Origin: Amphiscolops sp. MND2022
Lineage: Eukaryota
Assembly (NCBI GenBank): GCA_964187785.1
Contig: OZ076409.1
Coordinates: forward strand, 66,156,001-66,220,000
DNA: 64,000 bases
Direction of reading: 5' to 3'
A program made the position numbers and the translations under genes. How positions within the stretch are numbered: the stretch's first letter is position 1; each line of letters begins with the position of its first letter. A model generated the notes under the pieces. That model searched no databases and was not told where the DNA came from. It saw only the letters and a program-made list of their open reading frames with translations. Of the stretch, positions 36,619 to 39,890 are shown piece after piece.

Positions 36619-39600
36619 ATGACAACAGAGGAAAATTCGCCAGAACCCACTACCGCTCCAGTTGTTGGAAACGATGAAACTGAGACTCCAGAGACCGTTG
36701 AGTTACCAGGCCTTGTCAGGCCTTCTCCCCAAGTGTCCGAAGGCAGCAGGTCTACTGAAGAAAGTGTGACTGCATTTATCGAAAGGACTGTTGACGTAAT
36801 GTCTCAACCCGAGGCTGAGATCATCGATCCACTGCAAAGCCGGCAAGGCGTTACTGCCCGGATGGTCACTGTCAGCATCCCCTTTCTAAAAACCTCAGTG
36901 TCAGAGCCCATTCTTGTGAGGAATGACCTGACAAACATTGAGACAGGGGCCGGCAGTAGCAAGGAAACCGAATCTACAGAGGAAGTACAAGGCCTATATG
37001 GCGACACCACAGATGTAGAAGATTTAATGGACAACTCTGGCGTTGCCGTCTTCCCACCAGTCGCTCCGAATGTCATTTTGGACTCTACTACTTTCCCTGA
37101 GATAGAAGAGGGATTCCATGAAGATTCAGGGCACAGGGTTCTGAACAGGAACAATATCGAGCCAAATTAGACGGCGCCGATAGACAACATTCAGCGAAGG
37201 GCAAACTAGTCATCAAGAAATACTTTCAGGACACTCGCCCCAATAAACTACCCAGAGATCAACGAGTCATCGCTCTTACCGCAGATGAGATGCACGCTGT
37301 TCTGAGGACTGTTTCCGACGAATCTGTACTTTCGTCCTACCACATGATGAAGTCTTTGTTGCTTCATGCTACTCGAGGAGCTCCCCAGGATAAGAAAAGG
37401 CCTATGCCCAAGCGGTGTGTAACTCCTGCACGGCCATTCACTGACAGTTCAGGAGATGAAAGTAACTTTGAAGGACACGTGTCAGATGGTTACACTAGTG
37501 GAGCCTTCATTACGGATGAAGATCCTAACCAGTTGGCGTTCAGTTCTGGCACAGATTGCCTGAGTGAAACTGATCCTTTGTCTTTGACTCCAAGGGCCCG
37601 GAAAGTCCACGCCACCAGCACGTCCCAGATAGAGACTGCAACGCCAAACACTGGAAGCGGGTATAGCAGTGCTGATTACCAGCCACTCTCGTCGCTTGGA
37701 CGGCTACCCGAGCAGGAAACCCAGGACAGGAGTCCAGCCCGGAAAAAACGCAAGTTGCTCATCAAACCCGGGAAGGTGATGAAAGATGCCTATTTTAAGG
37801 GCATCCAATGGACTCGGACCTTCGTATCTGGCCCCGTTGATCCCGTCCACAATAAGTTCAAGTTTTACTGCATGCTATGTAAAACTAATGTTTCTAATTT
37901 CTCGAAGGGTGCCAGGGAGATCCTTAGACACTATAAGGCAGAAGGACATCTCCGGAAAGATCAAAAATGGAAGTTCACCCATCTGCAAGAGGCTGATGAA
38001 GTTACTGGGGTTGTTACGCACTATGTCAGAGGGAAAGATGGTTACGTGCTTACTCCGATTGAGCTGGAACGAGAAAAGCCATTATTCATTGATGCCCCCT
38101 GATCGAGACAGGTGATCGTTTCCCGTTCTTTGACGACTACATGGCTAGTATTGGAGGACTAACCAACCCTGATGACCTACGGACCAGTACCCTAATCTCC
38201 TTGATTGGGACTTTCGTACCGCAAGATGGCATTATTTCCCTGTTGCGAAACTTATGGACTCGAGTGGGCATGTTCACTAACCACCAAGCCTTGTTTTCCT
38301 CATTCGATTGGGGACCCGCAACTCTTACTGTAAGTAGAATCTTCATTTATAGAATTAATAGTAAGACCTAACGTGGCCTCTGGCTAAGACTTCCCTTTTG
38401 TACATTTGTGTTTTGTTTTAGAACATCTTCCATCACGTTTTCATGAGAGGTCTCGTAGATATCTCCAGTCACATCATGGCTACCGAGATGTATCCTATTG
38501 AGTTCACGACAGAGGGCATCTACCGGTGCATGTCCGTCCGTTTCTGGAGAGATGACTCACTCGTGCGGGTTGACCTTCATCGGCACAATCAAGCTGACCC
38601 TTATCCAGGCTGTTACTTAACAGCTATCTCATGTCTGCTGTCAGTTGTGTCCTCAAAACCCAATCTTGTCAGTGTTTCCGGTTGTTCTTCCGTGGTCTTC
38701 AGAGCTTTGGAGACATGTGGGCTGTTCAACCGCGGGATTCAGTACCTGTTCCGCTTCGAGGTTTTCTCCCTTCCCGAGTTAATGCACCCCACAGCGCTGC
38801 AGACTGGTTACATCTTTGGTCGAATCGACATTTTCTCCCAACTGAAGTTCCTAGTTGTCTACCTCCGAGGCGGGCTCAGTCAATCTTGGGCTCTACAGAG
38901 TCCCGAACTTTGCAAGGTGATTTATTTTCCCAACATAATTCTTTCATCAGACGTTGTCTTGGTGATCTGGTGTCGATACTCTTTTCTGGTCACTTTCATA
39001 ATAGTAAAAGGGAGCTCTCCTTATTTAATTGTATTCCATAGGCCATAACAGCATGTGATGTGGAACTTAAGAAGATCCCTGCCATTTGGTCCGAGCTCGT
39101 TAAAAGCTGGAAGGCTATCAAGGACTACCTGACCAGTATAGCCCCAACCCAGAAGATGCAAGGAGCTAAGAATAAGGTAGCTATTAGCCGTTTTCTAGCT
39201 GATCACCATTGGTTACAACACCACACTGTAATCTTGGAAGTTGTAATCCTTATGAGGTAAATTTTCTTTTAAGCCTCAGAGCCTGGAATGGGAGATTATT
39301 CTAGATGACTTCTTCACCATCAAGCTTGAATTCCTCTCCTTGCTGGTCCGCGATTGTTAGTCGTTTTCTTTGTTTTTATTTGAACCGACAGTGTAGTTGA
39401 CCTACCGGCTCATGTGCCGATCACGGCCTTAAGCATAACCACATTTGTGATGGGGTAGGGGATTCGGTAGATTCTGGTGATTTGCATCTGACTCTAAGTT
39501 TGTTTAGATGCCAAGTGTTTTGAACGAAGTCTCTCTGGACGGCGGGATGCAACCCTCTTCATTTATGGCCATTATTGCAGATTCATCCGCCGGTTGTGCC

Positions 39601-39890
39601 ACCGCGCCATCTTGCCCAAATGTATCCCAAGCGATACAGACTGGAATGGTCTCTTGCAATTGTGCCCCGACGATCTGAGACAATTATCAATCCGTGATTT
39701 CTTGAATCGCCTCAAGCTCACATGTGACCTTGATCTGGTTTGTCAAGCAAAACTGGAAAAATCTAGGGGATCAAACCCTGTACCTGCTAAGGTAATTAGC
39801 TACATAGTGTACATTCGCCAGTTTAAACTTTTGAGTTGTAAATTTCAGTTCTGTTTTTGTTTTCGTATTTGTATAGTTAGTTTCTTTTGA
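36619..39890 (+). pseudogene. Antisense spliced gene in element 2: BED-like zinc finger plus degenerate hAT-transposase-like body
   Basis: Introns 38330-38421, 38917-39041 and 39356-39507 are GT-AG and phase-preserving. Motifs FYCMLCKTNVS..GAREILRHYKAEGH, CMSVRFW and IKLEFLSLL..FIRRLCHRAILP. A few frameshifts and stops. Confidence 0.7.

Follow-up and report, generated by a model that had tools for sequence, protein, structure and literature searches.

The segment at positions 36619 to 39890 was found to belong to a broken copy of a gene with four coding introns, which lies antisense inside an LTR retrotransposon and is, almost certainly, a fixed spliced accessory gene of the Ty3/Gypsy clade carrying it. 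With moderate confidence we take the reading further: the protein of this clade-wide gene likely descends from a hAT-type transposase, has no conserved D-D-E triad and likely serves as a nuclear DNA-binding regulator which aids expression of the element. Positions given here are those of the window, i.e. the whole 64,000-nucleotide stretch analysed, and the genome searched was the 1.07-Gb assembly.

The carrier is a Ty3/Gypsy LTR retrotransposon on the minus strand. Its domains follow the Ty3/Gypsy order (gag, then PR-RT-RH-IN, according to Pfam), its LTRs differ at 39 of 1707 bases (2.3%), its TSD measures 5 bp (AGGAG), and both a TGG-starting PBS-like tract and a purine (PPT-like) tract are present. 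Between the end of pol and the 3' LTR there is a gap of about 5.3 kb, in which the antisense gene sits on the plus strand with its ATG at 36619. The antisense placement within an LTR element (32964-50265), proposed in an earlier sequence-only reading, thus holds. The features are as follows:

32964..50265, minus strand: Ty3/Gypsy LTR element, carrier of the antisense gene (paired LTRs, TSD, Pfam domains)
32964..34670, minus strand: 3' LTR of the carrier, 1707 bp, TG..CA
34588..35421, minus strand: sense accessory ORF, about 280 aa, acidic, with CxxC; crosses the PPT into the 3' LTR
35790..35860, no strand: CG-rich, CCAAT and AAAATGGCGG motifs between the divergent accessory genes
36414..36616, plus strand: likely 5' intron, with conserved motif cluster and in-frame upstream ATG at 36565
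36619..38329, plus strand: coding exon 1, with low-complexity N-terminus, RKKRK, finger and helical domain; two frameshifts here
38330..38421, plus strand: intron 1, phase 0, GT-AG
38422..38916, plus strand: coding exon 2, predicted RNase H-like fold
38917..39041, plus strand: intron 2, phase 0; precisely absent in locus L181
39042..39176, plus strand: coding exon 3, 135 nt, with an invariant Trp
39177..39273, plus strand: intron 3, phase 0; precisely absent in seven loci of one sub-branch
39274..39355, plus strand: coding exon 4, 82 nt
39356..39507, plus strand: intron 4, phase 1; precisely absent in six loci of one sub-branch
39508..39790, plus strand: coding exon 5, start only, as a deletion has removed about 870 bp (whole copies have 1157 nt)
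39974..44629, minus strand: pol with protease, dUTPase-like segment, RT, RNase H and integrase; one interrupting stop
46385..47644, minus strand: gag-like ORF, stop to stop, starting within the 5' LTR
47317..50265, minus strand: 5' LTR of the carrier, interrupted at about 48054-49305 by an inverted-repeat insert

Several peculiarities of the carrier were noted in passing. The dUTPase-like segment between protease and RT (43151-44629, minus strand) matched PF00692 below the cut-off (E=4e-4). Since the gag frame starts within the LTR, the 3' LTR holds a 228-codon duplicate of the gag start (32887-33573, minus strand). The insert at 48054-49305 is MITE-like, and related repeats occur at 44600-45600 in the carrier and elsewhere in the window.

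In an alignment of the window copy with 20 others, four coding introns with phases 0, 0, 0 and 1 were conserved. Splice dinucleotides were GT/AG at 164 of the 168 sites in these 21 copies; exon lengths were mostly constant (1713, 495, 135, 82 and 1157) and intron lengths varied. Once the introns were removed, seven of the 20 copies presented a single open frame of 1193-1195 aa, and the intact product comprises about 1,193 aa. Three GT-AG introns with phases 0, 0 and 1 had been proposed from the sequence; their number and phases were not upheld. Intron 3 (39177-39273) had been overlooked, and a three-intron model has to use one of three phase-1 GTs in the frame of exon 3, and it leaves out exon 4 (82 nt), which is conserved. 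Nor does the window copy encode the long open protein then envisaged, as two frameshifts (near 37140 and 38095) disrupt it and the last exon has lost about 870 bp at 39790/39801; because of this deletion, the gene end placed at 39890 is an artefact. A further 5' intron likely precedes the coding region, as suggested by a TTAG acceptor which is situated two bases upstream of ATG 36619 and is conserved throughout, its donor being conserved only in close subfamilies. The in-frame ATG 36565, retained even where families lost the second ATG (36619), may represent an alternative start. Tandem partial duplications of the antisense gene were also observed inside single elements (L089 and G000:C6:38465106-38468825).

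Among loci picked by the gene itself, it lay antisense beside pol in all 80 (20/20, 20/20 and 40/40). As gene-based sampling is biased, the search was repeated by integrase, with 113 matches scored out of 28985 candidates at 89-100% identity, a range that covers the window's closer relatives only. The antisense gene was located between pol and the 3' LTR in 112 of these 113 elements, which bears out the expectation that other copies hold it at the same position. Ninety of the integrase matches (window included) adjoined earlier gene matches, as paired by eye; when the remaining 23 loci were fetched, 22 contained the gene, and in the exception (L207) a deletion has taken away the gene together with the end of the integrase and a portion of the LTR. 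Young subfamilies are present (21 copies at 97-100% in exon 5), and gene and integrase co-diverge (Spearman 0.83 over 666 non-independent pairs). As for the spread of the family, 102 ENA records were related to exon 1, and all three tested were 98-100% identical to places in this genome. The exon-5 profile yielded 612 clusters at 50% identity, one of which (P0229) had no match in the genome at E<=1e-110 among the 105 of 7558 candidates scored, a hint that the family may reach other genomes. A search for exon 5 among longer proteins found none.

Purifying selection on the antisense gene, for which dN/dS had been suggested as a check, was confirmed: the ratio was 0.08-0.10 in four between-subfamily pairs and 0.18-0.22 in three close pairs. 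Shifted frames gave 1.2-2.6, with one reverse frame at 0.15-0.20, a value to be expected because third positions coincide. The same four introns were placed by a spliced aligner in families down to 35% protein identity. Among 39 modelled loci, intron 3 was precisely absent in seven, intron 4 in six and intron 2 in one, L179 being ambiguous in this respect. In a tree of 39 proteins (quick method, midpoint-rooted; L151, L159, L164, L168, L170 and L172, each with more than two breaks, as well as L158, L174 and L179 were excluded), the loci without intron 3 and those without intron 4 each grouped in a single branch (SH-aLRT 100 and 99) lying among branches that bear the introns, and the intron-2 absence fell within the intron-4-absence branch. 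The simplest reading would be three single intron losses. Precise absences combined with conserved sites are genomic evidence that the segments are spliceosomal introns. Between subfamilies, divergence was lower in the introns (38330-39507 and homologous loci; JC about 0.43-0.55) than at synonymous sites (dS about 1.0-1.2).

The antisense gene is also exchanged between near-identical element backbones. Elements L082 and L093 share 100% identical integrases and 99% identical sense ORFs, while their antisense-gene proteins are 56% identical; for L154 and L155, the respective values are 99%, 98% and 50%. Overall, the gene was swapped between elements with 99-100% identical integrase, the gene products themselves being 48-56% identical.

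With regard to the protein, the acidic low-complexity N-terminus, the NLS-like RKKRK (37740) and the CxxC..H..H finger (about 37869-37949) described from the sequence were all recovered, and each of the 39 modelled proteins has the finger's four ligands. The finger matched neither PF02892 nor PF18658 (best Pfam match zf-C2H2_ZN292, E=0.0013) and had an Atlas lead at 0.85-0.88. The protein matched no Pfam family above cut-off, PF04195 and PF05699 included, and a genome search with PF14291 and PF18658 gave nothing, the controls being silent as well. Finger, helices, an RNase H-like fold predicted for exon 2 and a helical region follow one another in an order that fits hAT. Hermes was the top Foldseek match, at a level below significance (E=0.02, rmsd 17.4), and two separate models each matched Hermes segments in collinear order, again sub-threshold. 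Kinases, actin-like ATPases and integrases equalled or outscored Hermes by Z, and Hermes was absent from the best 50 rows of a wide structure search with the second model. The exon-5 model, poor at pLDDT 50, had no Foldseek match, and a second look did not list Hermes either. The fold alignment A4 is flawed in that many of its exon-2 rows have their five leading residues placed on the zinc finger, and its query includes 28 intron-encoded residues. HMM and profile-profile (hhalign) comparisons with Ac-type and Tip/ZMYM-type hAT sets, both local and global, yielded scores that did not exceed those of reversed or block-shuffled controls; PDB sequence searches with A1, A2, A3, A5 and A7 reached a best E of 0.25; and the C-terminal hAT motifs CxxH and TRW were not conserved in the antisense-gene proteins. 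For the hAT-type core suspected from the sequence, structure matches thus stayed sub-threshold and profile tests against hAT families were negative. The protein probably descends from a hAT-type transposase. The Atlas neighbours of exon 5 were glycosyltransferases, which were dismissed (values below 0.9, low recognition).

The lack of an obvious catalytic Asp, likewise noticed in the sequence, is in line with the 39 proteins, among which neither a catalytic Asp nor the D-D-E triad is conserved. At the inferred triad positions (in a register taken from ranges and strand positions, without printed superposition), A, E, T or V follows strand 1, strand 4 ends in Gly in 39/39, and no Glu is invariant. 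A rival reading, which we consider unlikely, gives the protein a non-hAT origin or lets it remain an enzyme: an RNase H-fold nuclease from another transposase superfamily or an unknown source, using other conserved acidic residues. The failure of all sequence-profile tests against hAT and the many RNase H-like folds that tie with Hermes would suit it, as would the acidic residues conserved in at least 90% of the 39 proteins (E598, in 38/39, D584, E/D668 and others). However, it accounts poorly for the collinear picking of Hermes segments by two separate models, for the variable residue after strand 1 and the Gly at the end of strand 4, and for the absence of an E-R-x-F-S motif among the exon-5 relatives inspected by eye.

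Finger, NLS-like patch and predicted fold were kept under strong selection and the triad was not, so that a nuclear DNA-binding factor would be the simplest reading. It is plausible, though we state it with reserve, that the protein regulates the element by binding DNA in the nucleus. A protein of the same origin might have another job, namely that of an integration or nuclear-import cofactor which anchors the complex of cDNA and integrase on chromatin or selects target sites. The NLS-like basic patch, the zinc finger, the DNA-binding-type layout and the near-universal retention alongside intact pol are all compatible with this, and a nuclear-import role was discussed for plant antisense ORFs in the part of PMC7264820 available to us. 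Gene swapping on near-identical integrases nevertheless argues against a tight, specific partnership with integrase, and we regard a cofactor role as rather unlikely. The gene diverges fast and is swapped while pol is conserved, and this fits better with a role at the host interface, which could consist, for example, in promoting transcription or resisting silencing. More improbable is the capture of a host gene, already an inactive domesticated hAT derivative (ZBED/FAM200-like), as a decoy or host-factor mimic. ZBED and FAM200 are domesticated hAT forms, introns are common in host genes, and language-model neighbours include FAM200B- and GTF2IRD2-named clusters; on the other hand, 80 of 80 gene-picked loci adjoined pol (although thousands of candidates could easily conceal a host parent present in one copy), and the three exon-1 relatives tested, of 102, are nearly identical to places in this genome. 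Finally, a one-off DNA transposon nested in the window's LTR copy, conceivable in a genome rich in hAT elements (150 PF05699 matches scored), was refuted by the integrase-based prevalence; the co-divergence with integrase also speaks against it, and the TIRs and 8-bp TSD reported as absent in the sequence-only reading were indeed not found (at most one 10-bp match, at unrelated places, in each of five copies, and three scattered shared 8-mers within the window), leaving it next to no probability.

The regulator reading can be put as a model. It assumes that an ancestral element received a DNA transposon, inserted backwards, whose ends were then lost. The introns would persist because the genomic RNA is the opposite strand, and their rare precise losses would proceed via recombination with cDNA of the spliced message. 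Finger and helical domains would bind element DNA, with the conserved motifs immediately before the gene as candidate sites, and this binding would favour element transcription or counter silencing. Tentatively, the model may be extended: the LTR clade would have domesticated an intron-containing hAT transposase as an obligatory, exchangeable DNA-binding module and would conduct an arms race by swapping diverged versions on one gag-pol backbone, probably evading host silencing, with the intron losses recording reverse transcription of the antisense message.

The conserved upstream motifs form a noncoding cluster (36452-36616) that was retained down to the most distant families of the clade. 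It contains five GGAA cores against 0.4 in shuffles, and none of 2000 shuffles reached five, in a mononucleotide test of a pattern picked after inspection of the sequence. The inverted cores could represent ETS-type sites or pair as RNA; an Rfam search of 34600-40100 returned two chance-level matches and none for the cluster. Farther upstream, the CG-rich, CCAAT and AAAATGGCGG motifs were seen mainly in closer subfamilies, and we infer that they may be the promoter of the divergent accessory genes. In all 40 distant loci looked at, the sense accessory ORF adjoins the antisense gene; it matched no Pfam family, is frameshifted in the window copy, and is acidic with a SUMO-interaction-like stretch.

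The parallel with plant antisense ORFs drawn in the sequence-only reading is sound as regards place and orientation. According to the portions of PMC7264820 and PMC11963269 at hand, ORFs of the aORF-3R type (antisense, between pol and the 3' LTR) occur in maize Grande (gene23), rice RIRE2, Retand (TRP28/PF04195) and Botrytis Boty; gene23 possesses a promoter of its own and its product is nuclear, and a regulatory role was proposed for these plant and fungal Gypsy ORFs, yet is unproven. The same portion of PMC7264820 finds nothing similar to Gypsy antisense ORFs in other elements and describes their origin as unknown. The gene described here shares with them the Ty3/Gypsy context, the place, the orientation and the presence in most copies, but differs in its four conserved coding introns, its length of about 1,193 aa, its zinc finger and its predicted RNase H fold, and, unlike Retand TRP28, it has no PF04195 match; the word "intron" does not occur in the part of PMC11963269 covered. 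In hAT proteins, the BED finger provides DNA specificity and an insertion domain parts the Asp residues from the Glu (PMC4763223, in part), and the present protein, as predicted, would resemble Hermes and Kat1 in the order of BED-like finger, helical domain, RNase H-like core and large helical region. In contrast to hAT, conserved D-D-E, CxxH, TRW, TIRs and a significant profile match are absent, and the gene is carried by a retrotransposon rather than by a host or a DNA transposon, which also separates it from the domesticated forms. HBZ of HTLV-1 is a small bZIP protein. It resembles the present product, which would likewise be an antisense-encoded nuclear accessory protein of a retroelement (cited in the consulted part of PMC11963269), but the two proteins are unrelated and HTLV-1 is a retrovirus. 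Drosophila TART likewise retains introns on its antisense strand, its spliced antisense RNAs appearing to be non-coding (PMC1636488, in the part available). Neither "antisense" nor "intron" occurs in the accessible part of a review on plant gene capture (PMC13317346), and the literature listings searched, which cover few subscription journals, showed no LTR element with a transposase-like gene of several introns. The family offers a probable source for Gypsy antisense ORFs, i.e. a DNA transposase domesticated not by the host but by a second mobile element. Furthermore, hundreds of dated copies of a multi-intron gene within a reverse-transcribing element constitute a natural series for RT-mediated intron loss, and the same copies let one ask what accessory genes of LTR elements do.

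Two other elements occupy the window. A different LTR element (2889-21483, minus strand) contains a fragmented env-like ORF (PF24664) and a MATH-domain ORF (4881-5879) which overlaps the 3' LTR side; an antisense ORF at 10377-11090 is small and acidic. The third element, Gypsy-like and degraded (52786-63821, plus strand), has gag, RT and integrase and is strongly C-rich and G-poor.
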